Positions 5,869 to 32,955 are shown, numbered from the stretch's first letter. The stretch is DNA of 37,926 nucleotides from Candidatus Brennerbacteria bacterium (GCA_016187205.1 JACPKE010000004.1:1-37926), one strand, 5' to 3'. Notes: generated from the sequence alone by a model not told the origin. Made by a program: numbers and translations.

Positions 5869-6175
5869 TTGCGGATCGGGGAATCGAACCCCACCCTAAA
5901 GGTTATGCTTGCTACTACGATTTTCATCGCCTCCAAAATTAGGAGTTTGTAGTCTGGACTATACCTTAATCCTGTTTTAACGGGATTCTCGCCATCTAGT
6001 CTCTACGCCTTCTTCATCTCTTCATAATTCAGAGAAACCGAAGCTTGGTTCGGTATTACCTCTCCGTTGTTGGAAGGGGCTCCACCGAGTTTGACGAGTG
6101 TCCATCACTTATTACTAAGTGACGAGCCCATATTAAGTTTTGAGCCTTTCGAGCTCACCAGAGCTCTTATCCGCC
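5869..6175 (-). tRNA. Intron-containing tRNA, predicted anticodon CAT (initiator-like features); exons 6175..6143 and 5907..5869
   Basis: 5' exon is GGCGGATAAGAGCTCTGGTGAGCTCGAAAGGCT and 3' exon is CATAACCTTTAGGGTGGGGTTCGATTCCCCGATCCGCAA. Joined, they give a 72-nt class I cloverleaf with anticodon arm AAAGG-CTCATAA-CCTTT and T-arm TGGGG-TTCGATT-CCCCG. The 5' exon ends in U and the intron ends in G, as group I splicing rules require. Confidence 0.75.
5908..6142 (-). ncRNA. Group I intron (IC3-like), 235 nt, in the anticodon loop between positions 33 and 34
   Basis: Contains core blocks that I recall from the Azoarcus pre-tRNA-Ile intron: GTCAAACTCGGTG, CCAAGCTTCGG, and GATGAAG..GCGTAGAGACTAGATGGC followed by TTAAGG. 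No ORF lies inside. Confidence 0.75.
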
Positions 6176-13734: not shown

Positions 13735-13812
13735 AATGCGACATGTAAAATGCGACAAGTGTAATGAAAAAAACGCGCTATTTCGTTTATTTTATTGAGT
13801 TCCAATAAATTA

Positions 13813-14238
13813 ATGGCTAAACTAATCAAAACAACTTTAAAATTGCAGATTGAAGCCGGGAAAGCCAATCCGGCGCCGCCGATTGGACCGGCTCTTGGCC
13901 AGCACGGCGTTAATATTCAGGATTTTTGCAAGCAGTTTAACGACGCCACCAAGGATATGACCGGGGATGTTGTTCCGGCGGAAATCACTATTTATCAGGA
14001 CAGGACTTTTGATTTTAAACTGAAAACTCCTCCGGCTTCGGCTTTGCTTAAAAAAGCCGCTGGCGTTGAAAAAGGATCCAAGGATATTTTAAAAAGCAAA
14101 GTCGGCAAGGTTTCCAGAGAAGATATCAGGAAAATAGCCGAACGCAAAATGATTGATTTGAATACCGATAATGTTGAAGAGGCGGAAAAAATAATTGCCG
14201 GCACCGCAAAATCAATGGGGATTGAGGTTATGGATTAA
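13813..14238 (+). CDS. rplK: 50S ribosomal protein L11
   Basis: [42 protein letters not shown] prefer the ATG at 13813 over the upstream TTG at 13795 given in the ORF track, because L11 proteins normally begin MAK. Confidence 0.93.
14125..14237 (+). repeat. 113-bp segment of the rplK 3' end, duplicated at 18851..18963 (1 mismatch)
   Basis: Direct comparison of the two stretches, ATCAGGAAAATAGCCGAACGCAAAATGATTGATTTG...GGGATTGAGGTTATGGATTA. The only difference is ATAATTGCC versus ATAATCGCC. Confidence 0.95.
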
Positions 14239-14374
14239 ATTTTAAGTTTATTATAATTTAAGAATTTGCGTTGTTTTTAAATAAAAAATTTCCATACCCG
14301 TTGCTTAATGATTTTTGACCAAAATAATGATAGAATAACGGTATGATGAATATTTTTTAAACAATCTATAAATT

Positions 14375-15091
14375 ATGACAGATCAAAAAGTTGTTGATTA
14401 TATAAAAACTTCCTTGGCGACTGGAAAACCGAAGGAGAGTATTTATAAGGAATTACTAAATAGCGGCTGGACGATTGAAGCAATTGAAAAAAATTTCCAA
14501 TCTCTCAATATTGAATCGGAGAAAGCTGACACGCAAAAGAGAACAATCAAGATTATTTTGACGATTGGCGCAATTCTTATTGGCGCCGGTATTTTTTCTT
14601 TTGTGGCGGCGAATTGGGAAGAAATATCTCGTGTTCTTAAGGTGTCAATACTTATAGCGACTATGTTGGGTTTTTATATTGCCGGCTGGCATTTGAAGGA
14701 AAAAGCCGGCCTTGTCAAAACTGGCGCGGCATTTATTCTTCTTGGAGCAATCACTTACGGAGCTAGTATCTTTCTTATCGCTCAAATGTTTAACATTCGC
14801 TCTAATTGGCCCGATGGTTTTATTATTTGGATGGCGGGGACGCTCCTTATGGCGTTTAGTGCCGATATTTTTTCTCTTTTTTATCTTTCTATAATTACGG
14901 GAATCATTGCAGTCGCGGGAACACCGTTTACGCTTTTTGCGCCTCTTTTTGGTTCAAGGTCGCTCTTTAGCACTAGCTCTCAATTTCTTATGACGCCTTC
15001 TTTATTGCTTCTCGCGGCGGCGGCAATCGCTTTCATAAGCGGCTGGCTGGTTCGAAAAAAAATTCCCGATGAATTAAAAGATTATTATTAA
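14375..15091 (+). CDS. DUF2157-like membrane protein
   Basis: Soluble N-terminal segment, then TM helices with the FSFVAANWEEISR motif that I associate with DUF2157. The gene neighbourhood includes a GDYXXLXY protein. Confidence 0.6.
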   Translation: MTDQKVVDYIKTSLATGKPKESIYKELLNSGWTIEAIEKNFQSLNIESEKADTQKRTIKIILTIGAILIGAGIFSFVAANWEEISRVLKVSILIATMLGFYIAGWHLKEKAGLVKTGAAFILLGAITYGASIFLIAQMFNIRSNWPDGFIIWMAGTLLMAFSADIFSLFYLSIITGIIAVAGTPFTLFAPLFGSRSLFSTSSQFLMTPSLLLLAAAAIAFISGWLVRKKIPDELKDYY

Positions 15092-15096
15092 AAAAT

Positions 15097-16269
15097 ATGA
15101 TTTTAGCAATTTTATTTTTTGTTTTTCTGCCGTTTACCGCTTTTGCTTCCCACAACACTTCTTTTTTTGGAATACCTTATTTAACTTATCTCATTTGGCC
15201 CATTCTTATTGTTGCAGTTATCATCGGCTTTGTAACTTGGCGGCAAAGAAAGCGGGGCAAAACTGTGGCGCTTGGAAAGAATTGGTATTTGCAATTGGCG
15301 CTTTCGCGGGAAGATTTAGTAAGTCAATTTTTGCTTTCTCTGGCCGTGCTGTTTTTCGGACTGGCTCTTATGTCGTTCAACCGCCAATTAGGAGATCCAT
15401 TTTCATGGAAAACGATTATTCTTATTACTTCGCTTGTTGGCGTAATAATTGCCTATTTTTTAAAAGCGATCTATCCCCTTATCCTTGGTTTGGTAGGGAT
15501 GGGAATTTGGTGGATTGGCAAAGATATAGAATGGATTCAAGCCGTCCATGTTAAGCCAGTCTTCATTCTGGCGAGCGTTATTTTTAAAATGCTTTTCCTC
15601 TATGTTATTGGTCGTTTGCATGAGCAAAAAATGCGCTGGAAACGTTTTGCGATGGTTTATTTTATTCTTAGTTTAGCGGTGATAACCGTTATTCTTTTTA
15701 GTTTTTCAACAAAAATCGGTCTTTCCGAGTTCCAATCGCTCTTTAAGGGAGAATCTCTTTTTGGTTCTTGGCAAATTAGTGTTTCTTTGTTTGTTTTTAT
15801 TGTTCTTTTTCTTGGGGCGCTTTTTTATGCGGTGACAAAAGGAGTAGTCGCGAAAAGCGAGGTTGCCGCTCTTATTGTATTAGCGAGCGTATTTACTGCT
15901 ATTATGTTTATTCCGGTGGGCGAGCTCTTTATCAAACCAACGACGGGATACTATTCTAGTTATAATAATCCTCTTTCCGGCGCAGGTATATTTTGGGCCG
16001 CTCTCTTCAATTTCCTTCTTGTTTTTGAACTTTTGGGGATTATTTTTCTGGGATATGGCCGACGGGAAGGCTGGCTGGTTAATCTCGGCGCTTTTGGTTT
16101 CTTTGCTTTTATTATGTTTAAGTATTTTGATTGGTTCTTTACTTTTCTTGATAAGAGTGTTTTTTTCATCGGCGCCGGCATCCTTCTTTTTGGTGTTGGC
16201 TGGCTTATGGAAAAAAGCCGCAGGAAAATGATTTTATCTATGAAGGGAGAAGTTTCTCCCGCTGAATAA
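15097..16269 (+). CDS. Multi-pass integral membrane protein (DUF4401-like by context)
   Basis: 390 aa, about 10 or more hydrophobic helices, 5 nt after the previous gene and 4 nt before the GDYXXLXY gene. The family assignment is by synteny only. Confidence 0.55.
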   Translation: MILAILFFVFLPFTAFASHNTSFFGIPYLTYLIWPILIVAVIIGFVTWRQRKRGKTVALGKNWYLQLALSREDLVSQFLLSLAVLFFGLALMSFNRQLGDPFSWKTIILITSLVGVIIAYFLKAIYPLILGLVGMGIWWIGKDIEWIQAVHVKPVFILASVIFKMLFLYVIGRLHEQKMRWKRFAMVYFILSLAVITVILFSFSTKIGLSEFQSLFKGESLFGSWQISVSLFVFIVLFLGALFYAVTKGVVAKSEVAALIVLASVFTAIMFIPVGELFIKPTTGYYSSYNNPLSGAGIFWAALFNFLLVFELLGIIFLGYGRREGWLVNLGAFGFFAFIMFKYFDWFFTFLDKSVFFIGAGILLFGVGWLMEKSRRKMILSMKGEVSPAE

Positions 16270-16273
16270 TTTT

Positions 16274-17572
16274 ATGGAATCAACAAAACAAGTAAAATTT
16301 ATTATCGTCGTTGGGCTTCAAATCTTTGTTCTTTTCGCGATAATTATTTATAAAACCGCGATTCTCGCGAGCGGAACGGACATTGTATTAAAGCTTCAGC
16401 CAGTAGATCCAAAAGATTTTTTGCGGGGCGACTATGTCAGTTTGCGCTACGACATTAATAACATTGACTTAAATAAAATCTCGGTTGAAGGGGAAAAAAG
16501 TTTTAAAACAGGAGAAAACATTTATGTCAGTCTTAAAAAAGAACAAGATTATTTTTCTGCGGAAAAAGCCAACCATCAAAAACCAATGAGTAATTATTTT
16601 ATTAAAGGGATGGTTAGCAGGGGCGGTGACGGCGCTATTTCTGTTCAGTATGGCATTGAATCTTATTTTATGCCCGAAGGGAATGCCCGCGATCTTGAAC
16701 AGCTTACTTTTGGAAGGCAAAATAATACTCTTCTTGTTGGAGTAAAAGTTGACCGTTCCGGCAATGCTTTAATCAATAAAATAATTATTGCCGGCAAGGA
16801 AATTGACGCGTCTAATTTTAGAGAAGTTGCATCAAGTGTGGAATATTACAGAAACCAATCCCTTGGGAATGTGGAGGTTGCCTCAAGAGACGCGAAGCGC
16901 CAGGCAGATATACGGCAATTTGTTACCGCTATGGAGCTTTGCTACGACAGTACTGATTGCGGCGAAGGAACTAAAAAATATTTGACAAGCGCGACGATGC
17001 CAACAAGTATTGATATTGATAACAGTCCTATATTGTTTCAGAAGATACCGTCCGATTCATCAAGGAATACCCCTTATAACTGGATTAGTAATTTAGGTAA
17101 AGATTATGGGTATTGCGTATACGCTGTTTCAGAAAGTTTCCCTGCGACTTATTATATTGGATCGTCAAAGGGGTATAAAACAGAAACTATAGAACCAAAG
17201 ACACTAGAGGACTGCGGAGTTAAAAAATCTATTGCTCTTGTGGGTGGCTACATTTTTATTGATAGTAACAAAAATGAAGTTTTTGATAAGGGGGATGGTC
17301 TCTTTCAAGATATCAATGTAAGTTTAAGTAAGGCGGAAATTCTGAAAACTGGTGGTGGATTTACAAAGGGAACATTAAATCAGGTTAAACCTGATGCAAA
17401 AGGATATTATCAATTCGAGATTTTTGACGCGGGGAACTATAAAATTAGCCCGATATTAATTTCTAGATCCATAGGAGCGGGTACTAGTGGTAGCAGTAAG
17501 GATAAGGGATATTTTGAAATCAAAGGGGGTGAGAAAATTAACAATTATAATTTCTTTATTTTCTTCTATTAA
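16274..17572 (+). CDS. GDYXXLXY-domain protein fused to a pilin-like segment and a CnaB/SdrD-B-like domain
   Basis: N-terminal TM helix, then LQPVDPKDFLRGDYVSLRY...YGIESYFMPEG (GDYXXLXY family signature). A mid-region SRDAKRQADIRQFVTAMELCYD resembles the segment following the hydrophobic helix of type IV pilins. The C-terminal GGYIFIDSNKNEVFDKGDG..INVSL....GYYQFEIFDAGNYKI resembles CnaB/SdrD B repeats. Confidence 0.7.
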   Translation: MESTKQVKFIIVVGLQIFVLFAIIIYKTAILASGTDIVLKLQPVDPKDFLRGDYVSLRYDINNIDLNKISVEGEKSFKTGENIYVSLKKEQDYFSAEKANHQKPMSNYFIKGMVSRGGDGAISVQYGIESYFMPEGNARDLEQLTFGRQNNTLLVGVKVDRSGNALINKIIIAGKEIDASNFREVASSVEYYRNQSLGNVEVASRDAKRQADIRQFVTAMELCYDSTDCGEGTKKYLTSATMPTSIDIDNSPILFQKIPSDSSRNTPYNWISNLGKDYGYCVYAVSESFPATYYIGSSKGYKTETIEPKTLEDCGVKKSIALVGGYIFIDSNKNEVFDKGDGLFQDINVSLSKAEILKTGGGFTKGTLNQVKPDAKGYYQFEIFDAGNYKISPILISRSIGAGTSGSSKDKGYFEIKGGEKINNYNFFIFFY

Positions 17573-17632
17573 ATTGCGGGGAAAATTACTAACTATAATT
17601 TCGCCGTGCAGTTTTAAGAAAATTTCTCAGGA

Positions 17633-18673
17633 ATGAAAACTCAATTTATTAAGATACTCATTTTTTTATTTTTGGGTTTGATTTTGGTTTCATTACCGTT
17701 TGTTATAAAATATTTGTTTAAAGTAAAACAATCTGCAAATCTTAAAAATGAGGTTATGATAACCGAAACGAGTCCTGAACAGGAAAAACTCTTTGGCGAA
17801 GACAATGTTAAAAAGGAAGCAATTTTAGAAAAAAATGAAATAAATAAAGATAAAAGCGAGAAGTTGGTGGAACCAATCATCAAAAAAGAGGTGATTTTTA
17901 AGACAGCGCTACAAAACAATATCAAGAAAGTTATAATTATTGAAGTTGCGTTATTTGACACAAAATATGCAGATAATACTAATTATATAGACAAAACTTT
18001 TCTTGAGTTAGTTAATGCGCCGACGGCGTATTCTATTGTAAAAGGAGCCGGTGGGCAGGAATTGAGATTTGATTCTTTGCACGGTATCGACGACTGGTTT
18101 GCGCAAGAGTATAAAAGAATTACTGGTTATGAAAAAGAAGTTTTTGATATAAAAATCGTAGGACCCTTTAGCGTGTCGGAGCAACCTCCTCATAAACGGA
18201 TGAATGATTCCTGCTTAATTCTCCAGCCATATTTTCAAAGGGTTGCGATTGACAACGGTGTAGATATTTCAAAATACGACATTGCCGCGTTTGTCTTTTT
18301 TGATGATTTTACGCGAATAACGCCAGATCGTTTAGAGCAAAGCTTTTGGTCATGCCAAACAAGCGGCTCGTCTTATAATATGGTTTTTGTTGATTTCAAT
18401 GTCGCCTTTTTTTCAGGAATTAGCGTGGGGTTTATAGATTTAGCGCATGAATTATTTCATGGTTTAGGCGCTTATGACACATATGATGGTTGGAGATGCA
18501 TTGAACCCGATGGCATTCCTGAGCCGAATAAAGAGCCTAAATATCCCCAAAGTAAAGCTTGTTTAATGTGCAGAAATATTATGATTGGTGAAAATGCCAG
18601 TAGAGCCACTAACTCTCTTGATGAAGTAATGATTTGCAAGAACGAAGCCAAGGCGGTAAAATGGACGAAGTGA
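17633..18673 (+). CDS. Secreted or anchored putative zinc metalloprotease (HExxH)
   Basis: N-terminal hydrophobic helix (ILIFLFLGLILVSLPFVI), an AHELFHGLGAYDTYD (HExxH) motif and a Cys-rich C-terminal part. I cannot assign a family. Confidence 0.5.
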   Translation: MKTQFIKILIFLFLGLILVSLPFVIKYLFKVKQSANLKNEVMITETSPEQEKLFGEDNVKKEAILEKNEINKDKSEKLVEPIIKKEVIFKTALQNNIKKVIIIEVALFDTKYADNTNYIDKTFLELVNAPTAYSIVKGAGGQELRFDSLHGIDDWFAQEYKRITGYEKEVFDIKIVGPFSVSEQPPHKRMNDSCLILQPYFQRVAIDNGVDISKYDIAAFVFFDDFTRITPDRLEQSFWSCQTSGSSYNMVFVDFNVAFFSGISVGFIDLAHELFHGLGAYDTYDGWRCIEPDGIPEPNKEPKYPQSKACLMCRNIMIGENASRATNSLDEVMICKNEAKAVKWTK

Positions 18674-18733
18674 TAACGAAAAATAATCCCGCAAGAAAAG
18701 TTATTTAAACAATTCGGTTTTTATAATTTAAAA

Positions 18734-18970
18734 ATGGTTAAAAAATTATTCACAATCGAAGGAATGCATTGCGGCGCTTGCGCCGCCGGCATTGAGAAAG
18801 GTTCCGGCGACGTTTTAAAAAAAACAGCTGGTAAAATCAGCAGGGAAGACATCAGGAAAATAGCCGAACGCAAAATGATTGATTTGAATACCGATAATGT
18901 TGAAGAGGCGGAAAAAATAATCGCCGGCACCGCAAAATCAATGGGGATTGAGGTTATGGATTATTTTTAA
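18734..18970 (+). CDS. Chimeric ORF: HMA-like N-terminal fragment fused to a second copy of the L11 C-terminal domain
   Basis: [16 protein letters not shown] carries the GMxCxxC heavy-metal-associated signature. It is followed by [60 protein letters not shown], which corresponds to L11 residues from about 84 to the end. The last 113 bp are near-identical to rplK. It may be a pseudogene. Confidence 0.45.
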
Positions 18971-19002
18971 TCCAGTTTTTTGTTAATTGAATATTGGGTT
19001 AA

Positions 19003-19011
19003 TGTTATAAT
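19003..19011 (+). promoter_or_regulatory. Extended -10 element (TGTTATAAT) upstream of the thyX-like gene
   Basis: TGnTATAAT lies 25 nt upstream of the ATG at 19036, with the RBS AAAGGAGA in between. The -35 (TTAATT) is weak. Confidence 0.3.
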
Positions 19012-19035
19012 AAACAGTCAAGAAAGGAGAAAATT

Positions 19036-20715
19036 ATGGAAGAAAGATTGAATAATTTTCAGCAATTATCCGAATTAGGACTGCCTGATTTTCCGGCGGA
19101 AGAATGGAGCGACGAAGAACGTTTTTTGTTGGAACCGTTTTTTACCAATCTTGACGGCCATGTTACGGTGATTCGCAATTTGCCGCCAGAATTGGTAGGC
19201 GCGCTTTGTTCCAAAGCCAGCCGGGCCACCGGTTCTTTGATACGGGTATTTCTTAATGAATATTTAAAGCCGATTTTGCAGGGCGAAGATAAAAAGCTGG
19301 TTAAAGATTTGAAAGCGTTTGTCGCGATGTTTAGAGAATACAGTCCCGATAAAGTTTTGAATAACCAGCTGGCCAGGAAATTTTATGTTAGATGGCTTGC
19401 CGAGTTTGGCGATGATTCAATAGCGCAAATGACCGGCGTCCATGTTAATTTGCTCTATGTTTCACAGGTGGCGATGAAATTTATTGAAGACCAGCGGATG
19501 GGTTTGGAACCGATTGAAAAATCCACAAGATACGTGAATTACGGACAGAAGGTTGGCGGCCGGTATTTGTATTTTATACCGTTTTCTGAGTGGAATACCG
19601 TCTCAGAACTTGATGATAGTAAACTTTATAAAGAAACCCTTGATAATCTTTTCAATGTTTATAACTTGCTCGTGCCAAAGCTAACAGAATGGCTTAAGAA
19701 AAATTATGAAGAAAAATCTTCAGTTCTTGAGAAAAAAGCTTTTGACACGTTAAGAGGTTTATTGCCGATGGCGACTGTCAGTCAGGTTGCTTTTAGGGGC
19801 AATGCCCAGGCCTGGGAATATCTTGTTAATCGCACGGCGCGTTATCCGTTAAATGAGGTTAGGTTAATAAGCTCAGCCATCAGAGAGGAATTAAATTTAG
19901 AAATACCGTCTTTAATGGCAAGACTTGCGGAACCGAAATCGCAATTCTATCAAGCTTATTTGGCCGGAAAACGGGAAAAGGCAAAAAAGATAGCCAAAAC
20001 ATATGAATCATCAACGTTTGTTTACGCCCCTGATGTTGCCTTGATTGAATACGATTCTGACGCCGAAGATAAAATTTTAGCCGGAATTATGTTTCCTTAT
20101 TCCAATGAATGTTGGGGCAATATTATTGAATGGGTTAAGAGTTTGAGTTATAGCGAGAAAGAAAAAATTTTTGATGAGTATTTTACCGCCAGAACCGAAC
20201 GCTGGTATAAAGTATCCAGGGCTTTTGAAAATTCTTATTTGCGTTTTGAGATAGTTGTGAATGCGGGCGCTTACAGGGATTTGCACCGGCATCGGATGCA
20301 GACTCAAGACAGGCAGTATTTTACCATAAATCACGGTTATGATGTGCCGGAGGAGGTTGTTTCCGCCGGAATGGAAAAGGAATTCAGGGCGGCCTTGGAT
20401 TCGGTTAAGCCTTTGTTTGTTATGTTGAATGAAAAATACGGCCCGGAACTGGCTCAATACGTTGTGCCAATGGCTTACAGAATGAGATTTTATCAGTGGC
20501 AGAATTTCCGGCAGTTTTTCTGGGAAAGCGAATTGCGGACTATTTCGCAGGGCCATCCGGATTATCGCATGATTGAACAAATGAAATTCAAACTGGTGAA
20601 AGAAAAGTTTCCTTTATTGGCAAAATATATGAAAGTTGACACAAAAGATTATTTTTTTGCCAGAAGAGGCGTTGAAGAAAAGATTAAGGCAAAGACGGAC
20701 AAGCTGTTAAAGTAA
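19036..20715 (+). CDS. thyX: FAD-dependent thymidylate synthase, tandem-fused (pseudo-dimeric) long form
   Basis: The C-terminal half has YRDLHRHRMQTQDRQY (RHR block) and FFWESELRTISQGHPDYRMIEQ. These parallel T. maritima ThyX RHRIASYNELSGRY and [28 protein letters not shown] as I recall them. The N-terminal half has degenerate equivalents (FIEDQRMGLEPIEKSTRYV and AFRGNAQAWEYLVNRTARYPLNEVR). Confidence 0.75.
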   Translation: MEERLNNFQQLSELGLPDFPAEEWSDEERFLLEPFFTNLDGHVTVIRNLPPELVGALCSKASRATGSLIRVFLNEYLKPILQGEDKKLVKDLKAFVAMFREYSPDKVLNNQLARKFYVRWLAEFGDDSIAQMTGVHVNLLYVSQVAMKFIEDQRMGLEPIEKSTRYVNYGQKVGGRYLYFIPFSEWNTVSELDDSKLYKETLDNLFNVYNLLVPKLTEWLKKNYEEKSSVLEKKAFDTLRGLLPMATVSQVAFRGNAQAWEYLVNRTARYPLNEVRLISSAIREELNLEIPSLMARLAEPKSQFYQAYLAGKREKAKKIAKTYESSTFVYAPDVALIEYDSDAEDKILAGIMFPYSNECWGNIIEWVKSLSYSEKEKIFDEYFTARTERWYKVSRAFENSYLRFEIVVNAGAYRDLHRHRMQTQDRQYFTINHGYDVPEEVVSAGMEKEFRAALDSVKPLFVMLNEKYGPELAQYVVPMAYRMRFYQWQNFRQFFWESELRTISQGHPDYRMIEQMKFKLVKEKFPLLAKYMKVDTKDYFFARRGVEEKIKAKTDKLLK

Positions 20716-32231: not shown

Positions 32232-32558
32232 ATGGTTATTACTCAAGAAAAAATTAAACAGGTTGTTGATAAGATTGTTAAAGAATTTGAGCCGGAAAAA
32301 ATTATTCTTTTTGGCTCTTATGCGTGGGGTGAGCCGGATAAAGATAGCGACGTGGATTTGTTTATTATAAAAGAAACCGATAAAAATATTTTTGAAAGAA
32401 ATAGAGAGGCGCAACGGATCATATTTGGAAGCGGCATTCCTATTGATGTTTTGGTTTATACTCCGAAACAATTAATAAGAAGAGAAAAATTAGGCGACCA
32501 ATTTGTTCAAGAAATAATTAATAAGGGTCAAATTATTTATGAACAATCAGCAAGATAA
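32232..32558 (+). CDS. MNT-type nucleotidyltransferase (antitoxin-like partner of HEPN)
   Basis: ILFGSYAWGEPDKDSDVDLFII is the GSx(n)DxD minimal nucleotidyltransferase signature. Overlaps the downstream HEPN gene by 20 nt. Confidence 0.85.
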   Translation: MVITQEKIKQVVDKIVKEFEPEKIILFGSYAWGEPDKDSDVDLFIIKETDKNIFERNREAQRIIFGSGIPIDVLVYTPKQLIRREKLGDQFVQEIINKGQIIYEQSAR

Positions 32559-32955
32559 AAAGGAGTTTGTAAAAGAATGGATTTTGCGCGCGCGAGACGA
32601 TGAGCGTAATATATCCGCTCTTTTTAAAGAGCATGATGGCACTCCGGCGCACATTTGTTTTATTTCTCAACAAATCGCTGAAAAATATCTAAAAGCATTA
32701 TTATTGTTTTATGGCGGAAATTGCCCGAAAATTCATGCCATTGGATTTTTAATTGAATTAATTCAACCTTATGAAAAATTAATTGTGGAAAAATTAAAAG
32801 AAGAAGCAATTTTATTAGATCCTTATTATATTGAAGCGCGTTATCCAGCCGATATTCCTTTGGAAAATTTTACTTGGGAAATGGCAGAAGAAGCATATAA
32901 AGCTGTGATAAAAATTAAAGAATTTGTTTTGGATAGAATCGGGACAGACGCCTAA
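32539..32955 (+). CDS. HEPN-domain protein
   Basis: A..D...I..L........A.F.SQQIAEKYLKALLLFYG....K.H.I..L.......YYIEARYP is the classical HEPN (PF05168-type) pattern. Paired with the MNT gene. Confidence 0.85.
   Translation: MNNQQDKKEFVKEWILRARDDERNISALFKEHDGTPAHICFISQQIAEKYLKALLLFYGGNCPKIHAIGFLIELIQPYEKLIVEKLKEEAILLDPYYIEARYPADIPLENFTWEMAEEAYKAVIKIKEFVLDRIGTDA

Follow-up and report, generated by a model that had tools for sequence, protein, structure and literature searches.

The contig JACPKE010000004.1 of a Candidatus Brennerbacteria bacterium (assembly GCA_016187205.1), analysed over its whole length of 37,926 nucleotides and hereafter called the window, carries a lineage-specific insertion of about 4.6 kb (14238-18850) directly after the stop codon of rplK, the gene for ribosomal protein L11. 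The site is empty in the closest relatives found, the last 113 bp of rplK stand in native form at both ends of the insertion, a 69-bp rplK-like segment preceding the second copy is an outlier among the sequences compared, and the contig harbours no mobility genes. The inserted DNA comprises four genes and ends in a 78-aa chimeric open reading frame (ORF). Taken together, the evidence points to a recombination scar beside a gene-turnover hot spot, and not to a self-mobile element or a new kind of system. The best explanation, which we believe somewhat more than we doubt, is that foreign DNA bearing an rplK fragment was integrated under the guidance of homology and independently of a recombinase, the native target being duplicated in the process.

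An insertion between rplK and thyX

The closest relatives were found through homologs of ThyX, and are a Logan contig (L087) and a Hainich groundwater genome (L088-L092), whose ThyX proteins share 90% and 74% identity, respectively, with that of the window. In these relatives, rplK is followed at a distance of 113 or 108 bp by thyX, and then by the genes for DHFR (on the other strand), dCMP deaminase, tmk, a nudix protein and gatB, which is the order of the window minus 14238-18850. Since the closest relatives have rplK followed by thyX and the same downstream order, 14238-18850 represents an insertion in the lineage of the window. A preliminary description of this DNA, made from the sequence alone, had proposed that a block (14125-18963) was inserted after rplK and that a comparison of synteny with related genomes should reveal whether rplK can be followed directly by the thyX-side sequence. 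This comparison has now been run, and the empty site in the two closest relatives bears the proposal out.

With regard to the exact position, the relatives' rplK-thyX spacer contains a strong intrinsic terminator, followed by an extended -10 box and the thyX ribosome-binding site. The terminator hairpins of L087 and L088 have folding energies of -21.6 and -20.5 kcal/mol (z -6.6 and -5.8), and their stems differ at few positions, both of them being able to fold. Folding of the window revealed no equivalent terminator, neither after rplK nor after the second copy of its 3' end. The sequence that follows the first copy is unrelated to the relatives' spacer, and that following the second copy aligns with it from TTTAATCC on, the last base of the stop codon and some 42 nt that contain the terminator being gone. 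Judging by this alignment, the insertion site is the border between rplK and its terminator. Neither tRNA genes nor Rfam families were detected at the insertion site. The end of the second copy, TGGATTA, can pair with TAATCCA, which is followed by GTTTTTTG, and only a weak AT-rich hairpin is formed there (18950-18985).

Besides rplK and thyX, the contig carries pheS/T, purC, gyrB, secE, nusG, the genes for DHFR and dCMP deaminase, tmk, gatB, gapdh and others; rplA, rplJ and rpoB were not found on it. Among species-representative genomes, the nearest L11 proteins belong to Patescibacteria and are at most 82% identical to that of the window. The order pheT-gyrB-secE-nusG-rplK is conserved in these Patescibacteria genomes, and rplK is not followed by rplA in the clade (loci L003-L041). 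Across the wider clade, rplK and gatB are separated by anything from about 0.1 kb (L008) to 10 kb (the window), a stretch occupied mostly by tmk, dCMP deaminase, nudix and thyX genes; this range of 0.1 to 10 kb identifies the rplK-gatB border as a site of recurrent gene turnover. In the gene maps inspected (the first 45 among 80 genome loci, plus 8 metagenome loci), none of the genes carried by the insertion was seen near rplK, and no second L11 fragment within 10 kb came to light when all 80 genome loci were scanned in six frames with an L11 hidden Markov model. The rplK-gatB interval of L023 contains a 321-aa ORF, the N-terminus of which may, judged by eye only, be reverse-transcriptase-like.

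Two copies of the rplK 3' end and the separate histories within the second

The left and right copies of the 113-bp repeat are designated R1 and R2 (R when both are meant), and the segments that precede them are designated L1 in rplK and L2 in the second copy (Table 1). As stated in the preliminary description, the 3' end of rplK recurs with a single mismatch: both repeat finding and direct alignment give 112 identical bases out of 113, and codon-by-codon comparison places the sole difference, T at 14196 and C at 18922, in an Ile codon, where it is synonymous. The edges of the repeat are sharp, with mismatches at 14124/18850 and 14238/18964, and the longest exact run inside it is 71 nt. By the Nei-Gojobori method, the synonymous divergence (dS) between R1 and R2 is 0.047 and the non-synonymous divergence (dN) is 0. 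Upstream of the second copy, where some 65 bp had been described as L11-like yet diverged, L1 and L2 were found to align in frame over 69 bp, sharing 16 of 23 residues and 47 of 69 nucleotides (68%), with a dS of 1.65 and a dN of 0.26. L2 runs into R at 18850/18851 in register and without any change of frame. Because divergence is high between L1 and L2 and near zero between R1 and R2, the two parts of the second copy have separate histories.

The first 100 residues of L11 do not differ among the window, L087 and L088. At the nucleotide level, L1 is 87% identical to L087 and L088, and 91% identical to L093. L2 shares 67-68% identity with L1, L087, L088 and L093 alike, the first three of these being 87-96% identical among themselves, and R is 82% identical to L087 and 74% identical to L088. 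Between the window and L087, dS amounts to 0.72 in the N-terminal part of the gene, 0.72 in L and 0.79 in R. Since the dS of R resembles that of the rest of rplK, R is of native type in both copies. The idea that the 113 bp are foreign and have overwritten the native rplK tail was rejected, as their divergence from L087 matches that of the rest of the gene. Another candidate, in which the displaced fragment would be the recipient's own former 3' end, as in classical homology-facilitated illegitimate recombination (HFIR), was also rejected, as the outlier is L2 and not L1.

The 22 sites at which L1 and L2 differ fall on codon positions 1, 2 and 3 in the proportion 5:5:12. The clade consensus is carried by L1 at 16 of them and by L2 at 2, and at several of the former 16, L2 has the majority state of the wider family, which the clade has lost. 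Codon 89 reads GGC (Gly) in L2, and AAG or AAA (Lys) in the window, L087, L088 and L093. The best match of L2 is the rplK gene of L003, with 51 identical positions out of 69 overall and 29 out of 30 over the first 30 nt. From these 23 codons, we conclude that L2 in all likelihood descends from an rplK gene outside the clade that holds the empty-site genomes. The preliminary description had supposed that an incoming element brought along its own diverged copy of the rplK end, and the L11-like stretch beside the second copy does look like the rplK of another lineage. In addition, L2 carries the substitutions K95T and V96A at positions occupied by K in 74 and by V in 70 of 80 sequences; these changes at strongly conserved sites of L11 indicate that L2 was once under relaxed constraint.

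A separate observation concerns rplK itself (window 13813-14238, L087:24-449, L088:6983-7408), inside which the pattern of shared sites switches. Over the N-terminal 243 nt, the window sides with L088 (13 sites versus 4), and over the last 111 nt it sides with L087 (14 versus 5), as it does in thyX (319 versus 60). The switch suggests that these three lineages recombined in the past, with rplK containing the break point; however, dS varies strongly between neighbouring genes, and the pattern is given no weight here.

Table 1. Coordinates of the features at the rplK-thyX insertion (positions in the window).
Feature	Position	Strand	Remarks
rplK, intact 141-aa ribosomal protein L11	13813..14238	+	ATG at 13813, upstream TTG at 13795 also possible; Pfam Ribosomal_L11_N and Ribosomal_L11
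L1, native rplK segment matching the diverged part of the second copy	14056..14124	+	
R1, left 113-bp direct repeat (final 37 codons of rplK)	14125..14237	+	
Left end of the inserted DNA, AT-rich spacer holding TTATAATTTAA (14251-14261)	14239..14374	+	dissimilar to the relatives' rplK-thyX spacer
Cargo gene 1, DUF2157 membrane protein	14375..15091	+	Pfam PF09925, E 9.8e-33
Cargo gene 2, 390-aa polytopic membrane protein	15097..16269	+	hydrophobic; DUF4401 matched only faintly (E 1.3)
Cargo gene 3, GDYXXLXY protein with SdrD B-like C-terminal part	16274..17572	+	Pfam PF14345, E 8.4e-35
Cargo gene 4, orphan 346-aa protein (p346)	17633..18673	+	N-terminal hydrophobic segment, HELFH (HExxH) motif
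Chimeric 78-aa ORF: HMA-like N-terminus, putatively foreign rplK piece, native rplK tail	18734..18970	+	
HMA-like start and AAGIEKG-coding string (18782-18802) common to HMA genes and rplK	18734..18802	+	likely illegitimate joint
L2, diverged in-frame rplK-derived segment	18782..18850	+	concluded to be of foreign origin
R2, right copy of the 113-bp repeat	18851..18963	+	
Native rplK-thyX spacer	18964..19035	+	lacks the stop codon and the ~42-nt terminator; extended -10 box TGTTATAAT at 19003-19011; ribosome-binding site at 19025-19029
thyX, first native gene downstream of the insertion	19036..20715	+	Pfam Thy1

The chimeric ORF at the right border

The preliminary description had missed two features of the right border, namely, that the relatives' rplK terminator is absent from the window, and that the second copy is a three-part chimera which starts like a gene for a heavy-metal-associated (HMA) protein. 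Residues 17-74 of the 78-aa ORF match Pfam Ribosomal_L11 (E 1.1e-18) at profile positions 12-69 of 69, the first 11 being missing; Ribosomal_L11_N gave no match to the ORF, and TIGR01632 gave a score of 62 against a cut-off of 142. The stop codon is shifted two codons beyond the normal one, whose TAA became TAT. The first 16-22 residues or so resemble the start of an HMA protein, since residues 6-22 match Pfam HMA with an E-value of 6.7e-4 (20.4 bits, below the cut-off of 24.8), and NCBIfam returns a weak CopZ match (E 0.004 over 21 residues). The full HMA domain of about 62 residues with its GMxCxxC motif is not present.

HMA genes in the metagenome loci L102, L103, L108 and L112 encode a GM[HT]-type sequence that includes the string AAGIEKG. 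Its codons read GCCGCCGGCATTGAAAAGGG in the HMA genes of L102 and L103, and GCCGCCGGCATTGAGAAAGG in the rplK gene of L003, and the switch from HMA-like to L11-like sequence falls inside the approximately 20 nt that encode it. On these comparisons, it is plausible that the AAGIEKG string served as a microhomology joint; the parental HMA gene was not found in the metagenome scan, which returned ordinary rplK and ordinary HMA genes and no chimera. No other HMA::L11 chimera was present in a collection of 5.8 billion proteins, in Joint Genome Institute (JGI) metagenome contigs or in viral contigs. Truncated L11 proteins were the only homologs retrieved with the 78-aa ORF, and exact-sequence look-ups of L11, ThyX and the 78-aa ORF yielded no contigs. 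One apparent stand-alone C-terminal domain (P0014) was discarded, being the product of a frameshift in a low-coverage contig. The 78-aa ORF is probably a by-product of recombination and not a gene; with regard to annotation, it should not be named L11.

Two further observations touch this ORF. The Logan contig L084 (window 17454-18793) ends at 18793, inside the AAGIEKG-coding string, and if this end is a branch of the graph and not a drop in coverage, that sample would contain an intact HMA gene whose sequence agrees with the ORF over the first 60 nt or so. In addition, a 1253-bp contig of an unrelated organism (JGI 3300021077, L002:671-1060) encodes a 129-aa ORF, P0036, which combines a hemerythrin-like N-terminal part with an L11 C-terminal tail. 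This tail begins almost where the identical repeat of the window begins; P0036 could be another instance in which the rplK tail was duplicated, or else an artefact of chimeric assembly.

Cargo genes and the search for mobility functions

The enclosed genes had all been labelled envelope proteins. They consist of a DUF2157 protein, a polytopic membrane protein that matches DUF4401 only faintly, a GDYXXLXY protein and an orphan with an HExxH motif, and are better regarded as proteins of unknown function that are predicted to be membrane-bound or secreted. The orphan p346 has no match in Pfam, NCBIfam or PHROGs, and one homolog alone, 33% identical, among 5.8 billion proteins. The best non-self relative of the GDYXXLXY protein among 1.84 billion representatives is 44% identical. 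Because p346 is an orphan and the GDYXXLXY protein has no relative closer than this, the sequences give no sign of a circulating cassette. GC content, GC content at third codon positions and codon usage of the four cargo genes lie within the range of the contig's other genes, so that composition and codon usage provide no signal of foreignness. The cargo is missing from the relatives at the rplK site yet host-like in composition, and may have a foreign origin or result from a move within the genome. No match to the left spacer was found by blastn in any fetched locus.

An 11-bp string, TTATAATTTAA, had been reported at 14251-14261 and 18721-18731. It does occur at both positions, and a third exact copy lies at 103-113 on the minus strand, where it shows no visible relation to a gene start. 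Its significance is marginal. As the longest exact match between the flanks, 11 nt has a p of about 0.02 in mononucleotide shuffles, 0.09 in first-order Markov sequences and 0.04 relative to other segments of the window, and the frequency of the string with one mismatch allowed equals the chance prediction. A role of TTATAATTTAA as part of an extended att site or as a promoter motif was rejected, as the string does not stand above chance once multiple comparisons are counted.

The preliminary description had found no integrase or recombinase in the block, and this holds for the contig at large: no tyrosine or serine recombinase was detected by Pfam in its 34 principal ORFs (those of at least 90 aa on the 37.9-kb contig, plus secE and the 78-aa ORF). 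Library scans found no transposase, phage, plasmid or conjugation domains, and no excisionase or replication genes, in the insert or elsewhere on the contig. PHROGs gave no matches in the insert, and repeat finding gave no terminal inverted repeats at its ends. The duplication of 113 bp is far longer than the target duplications of transposons. Viral contigs scanned with the chimeric ORF and the GDYXXLXY protein returned nothing, and the literature searched contained nothing relevant on rplK as an integration site.

Support for the assembly

The window is the whole contig, and its junctions were compared with Logan unitig contigs (k=31) from the Sequence Read Archive runs SRR12113383, SRR12113384, SRR12113420 and SRR12113430. 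A neighbouring run accession of the same series derives from groundwater in Modesto, California (PMC11549363), and the four runs presumably belong to that project. Over the cargo and at either type of junction, the Logan contigs agree with the window at 99.9-100% identity, and the L2-R and R-left spacer junctions are present at 100% identity in the contigs of the four runs. L083 (16785-18880) reads out of the cargo, crosses the 5' part of the chimera and breaks off after the first 30 nt of R2. Two further contigs begin inside the left copy, L116 at 14208, with 30 nt of R1 still to come, and L117 at 14125, where R1 itself begins; L117 then continues into the left spacer and the cargo. These breaks are those of a k=31 graph at a repeat with two left and two right contexts, and the four junctions can therefore be regarded as real. 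A collapse or expansion during assembly, which the preliminary description had named as a possible source of the duplication, does not apply at the level of the junctions, as the four runs reproduce them and break exactly at the edges of the repeat.

A mis-resolved assembly would imply that the true state is an empty rplK-thyX site together with a separate 4.7-kb circle or another locus, or that the contig is a chimera joined at the repeat. In its favour, the k=31 contigs break at the repeat, so that the linkage of the flanks across R has no independent support, and in L117 the left spacer is linked to the C allele of the polymorphic site in place of the T of the window, a difference that is uninformative owing to bubble popping. 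We nevertheless regard an assembly error of this kind as very improbable. All four junction types were recovered at 100% identity in independent runs; the repeat of 113 nt, with its exact run of 71 nt, is shorter than the k-mers of 141-151 nt named in other contigs of these collections, and should be spannable by large k-mers or by reads longer than about 115 nt. Furthermore, a chimera cannot make the HMA::L2::R mosaic, which L083 crosses without a branch.

Origin of the insertion

The proposed course of events starts from the ancestral order nusG-rplK-terminator-thyX. Foreign DNA bearing the four-gene membrane-protein operon would have entered between rplK and thyX, and at its right end would have stood part of the rplK of a different lineage, to which the beginning of an HMA (copper-chaperone-like) gene had previously been joined. 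This rplK piece would have paired in register with the resident rplK 3' end. Integration may then have been of the Campbell or 'ends-in' type, in which the incoming molecule is circular or circularly permuted and chromosomal sequence fills the gap; the alternative is HFIR followed by gene conversion. By either route, the last 113 bp of the resident rplK would come to lie on both sides, leaving an intact rplK on the left and the 78-aa chimeric remnant on the right. The HMA::rplK joint itself was probably produced by recombination across the AAGIEKG-coding string. A donor with the arrangement rplK-spacer-operon-HMA gene may have circularised over this string, in which case the junction of the circle would be the chimeric ORF, and the position of the cargo after an rplK stop codon would be accounted for as well. 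No dedicated recombinase would be required. The circular intermediate, the alternative of gap repair or conversion and the role of the AAGIEKG string are what we infer from the arrangement of the window. Transformable bacteria are known to undergo HFIR and to retain displaced 3' gene fragments (PMC5361080). In Patescibacteria, natural competence and recombination of incoming DNA have been demonstrated experimentally only in Saccharibacteria (PMC10633639), and horizontal gene transfer is frequent among the groundwater representatives (PMC12455944). No com or recA genes are present on this contig.

Several points speak against this course of events. The guiding homology is thin, for L2 is 68% identical to L1, and whatever arms paired would have been short, located at the ends of R and no longer recognisable. 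As a simple exchange or a single crossover would leave one R of foreign type, two native copies need either gap filling from the chromosome or later conversion. The loss of the stop codon and of the ~42-nt terminator after the second copy is unexplained and needs an extra deletion. The donor arrangement rplK-operon-HMA was not found in any collection searched, and the K95T and V96A changes imply a period of relaxed evolution, the timing of which is hard to square with a recent insertion. For the way in which left and right flanks are joined across the 113-bp repeat, the original assembly is the sole source, contigs with k=31 being unable to confirm it. Site-specific integration into the 3' end of a conserved gene, too, would be expected to produce direct repeats with sharp edges.

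Site-specific integration was the core of the preliminary description, which saw an element integrating att-like with its own diverged rplK end. Of that proposal, the insertion and the foreign L11-like stretch have stood, whereas the marks of a mobile element and the diverged element copy of the repeat have not, the 113 bp being native-type. In a modified form, the block would be the remnant or satellite of an integrative element targeting the rplK 3' end, with the 113-bp copies as attL and attR, L2 as an arm of attP, and an integrase that was lost or acts in trans on a cis-mobilisable element. The target gene is complete and direct repeats of the attL/attR type stand at both ends of the block; their sharp edges, the empty site in relatives and the foreign rplK-like arm by attR would all be accounted for, the changes of L2 at conserved L11 sites would fit a long life as a non-coding att arm, and the inspected part of the genome is 38 kb only. 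We nonetheless consider such an element unlikely, as no recombinase, excisionase, phage, conjugation or replication gene was found in the insert or on the contig, the cargo consists of four ordinary membrane proteins of host-like composition, and neither the cassette nor the chimeric ORF was found elsewhere in protein, metagenome and viral collections. A core of 113 bp is, moreover, long for an att site. Both repeats are native-type, unlike the outcome of a simple exchange between attB and an attP with a diverged copy, which is insufficient for this reason, and gap repair or later conversion would still be needed. The integrative element thus fits the architecture but has no positive support. 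Rather improbable, too, is an integrase-less cassette (the 4.7-kb unit 14125-18850) that leaves and re-enters the rplK 3' end in circular form by means of host recombination or a recombinase acting in trans, the HMA::L11 ORF being its junction. If this were true, a symbiotic Patescibacterium would possess a pop-in/pop-out module of surface proteins, the essential target gene of which is never damaged.

The second copy could also stem from an older partial duplication of the rplK 3' end that arose in situ with the insertion, its 5' part having decayed and its last 113 bp having been kept or reset by conversion, a course that the preliminary description had mentioned as giving the same picture. 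The proportion of synonymous differences, 0.67 between L1 and L2 compared with 0.46 between the window and L087, is based on only about 15 synonymous sites and is not firmly decisive; direct repeats of this length are good substrates for conversion, and the changes of L2 at conserved L11 residues are pseudogene-like. However, the ancestral states kept by L2, including GGC (Gly) at codon 89, had already been replaced in the common ancestor of the window, L087, L088 and L093, that is, before the clade with the empty-site genomes diversified, and a three-base reversion to the majority codon by drift is unlikely. The sites of L087 and L088 are empty with an intact terminator, and that of L093 is unreadable, its 1-kb contig stopping at the rplK stop codon. 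Furthermore, the differences favour third codon positions (5:5:12) instead of being spread 1:1:1, there is no gradient of divergence towards the edge of the repeat, and conversion would have had to start between sequences already about 30% diverged. A duplication in situ is thus disfavoured and appears quite improbable to us. As to the 78-aa ORF, it could be a functional free-standing paralogue of the L11 C-terminal domain, whose 3' part is held identical by concerted evolution, considering that it is open and in frame, that dN/dS between L1 and L2 is about 0.16, and that a TATAAT-like box lies directly upstream of its ATG. This is hardly credible, since the ORF is unique among 5.8 billion proteins, JGI metagenome contigs and viral contigs, lacks the N-terminal 11 of the 69 positions of the Pfam L11 RNA-binding domain, has the conserved K95 and V96 substituted and has lost the normal stop codon; its in-frame joints come automatically with homologous alignment, and need no selection.

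Other features of the window and its relatives

Apart from the rplK region, a group I intron was recognised by Rfam at 5931-6152 on the minus strand, with 59 bits and above the gathering score; it is intergenic between a hypothetical gene and pheS, and has no obvious host gene. The gyrB gene of the window encodes 659 aa with DNA gyrase B domains only. That of the Hainich relative (L088:2934-6203, 1089 aa) holds an intein (Pfam Intein_splicing), and the gyrB genes of L018 and L094 give matches in two pieces more than 1 kb apart. At 32232-32955, adjacent genes for a nucleotidyltransferase (Polbeta/NTP_transf_2) and a HEPN protein show the usual arrangement of an MNT-HEPN toxin-antitoxin pair.

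Significance and comparison with known systems

The locus provides a clean before/after pair for gene gain in a streamlined genome of uncultivated Patescibacteria, with junctions resolved to the base, and bears on how small genomes acquire surface functions. The border of a conserved ribosomal gene can apparently take up foreign DNA without visible mobile-element machinery, and the arrangement suggests, as a possible route, homology-guided integration in which short strings common to unrelated genes serve as joints.

Elements that insert at the 3' ends of housekeeping genes and restore them include streptococcal integrative and conjugative elements (ICEs) at rplL, rpsI and rpmG, and the staphylococcal cassette chromosome SCCmec at rlmH; integrase-less derivatives of such elements are known as cis-mobilisable elements. 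The block in the window resembles them in its direct repeats of a gene 3' end, its intact target ORF, its gene-like arm and the empty site in relatives. It differs from them by the absence of an integrase or mobility gene, by an identical core of 113 bp of which both copies are native-type, and by a cargo not seen elsewhere.

Campbell or 'ends-in' integration, as described by the plasmid-integration and double-strand-gap-repair models, results in flanking repeats of the target, both of which are chromosomal if the gap has been repaired; the target gene stays intact, and the insert may be lost by recombination between the repeats. Like such an insert, that of the window is flanked by native repeats of its target and leaves rplK intact. 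Unlike an integrated plasmid, it has no plasmid backbone or replication gene, its homology arms would have been very short, and an additional deletion of about 42 nt would be required to remove the terminator.

A likeness is also found with HFIR and the displaced or 'orphaned' 3' fragments of Rhs, contact-dependent inhibition and type VI secretion system effector loci (PMC5361080), where, as is proposed here, foreign DNA has been added beside a conserved-gene anchor and a truncated 3' fragment remains downstream, and where no dedicated recombinase is involved, the hosts being naturally transformable bacteria. In contrast to these cases (PMC5361080), the fragment in the window is a mosaic, foreign in its 5' and native in its 3' part, the native 3' end has been duplicated instead of replaced, and the anchor is a ribosomal protein gene and not a polymorphic toxin gene.

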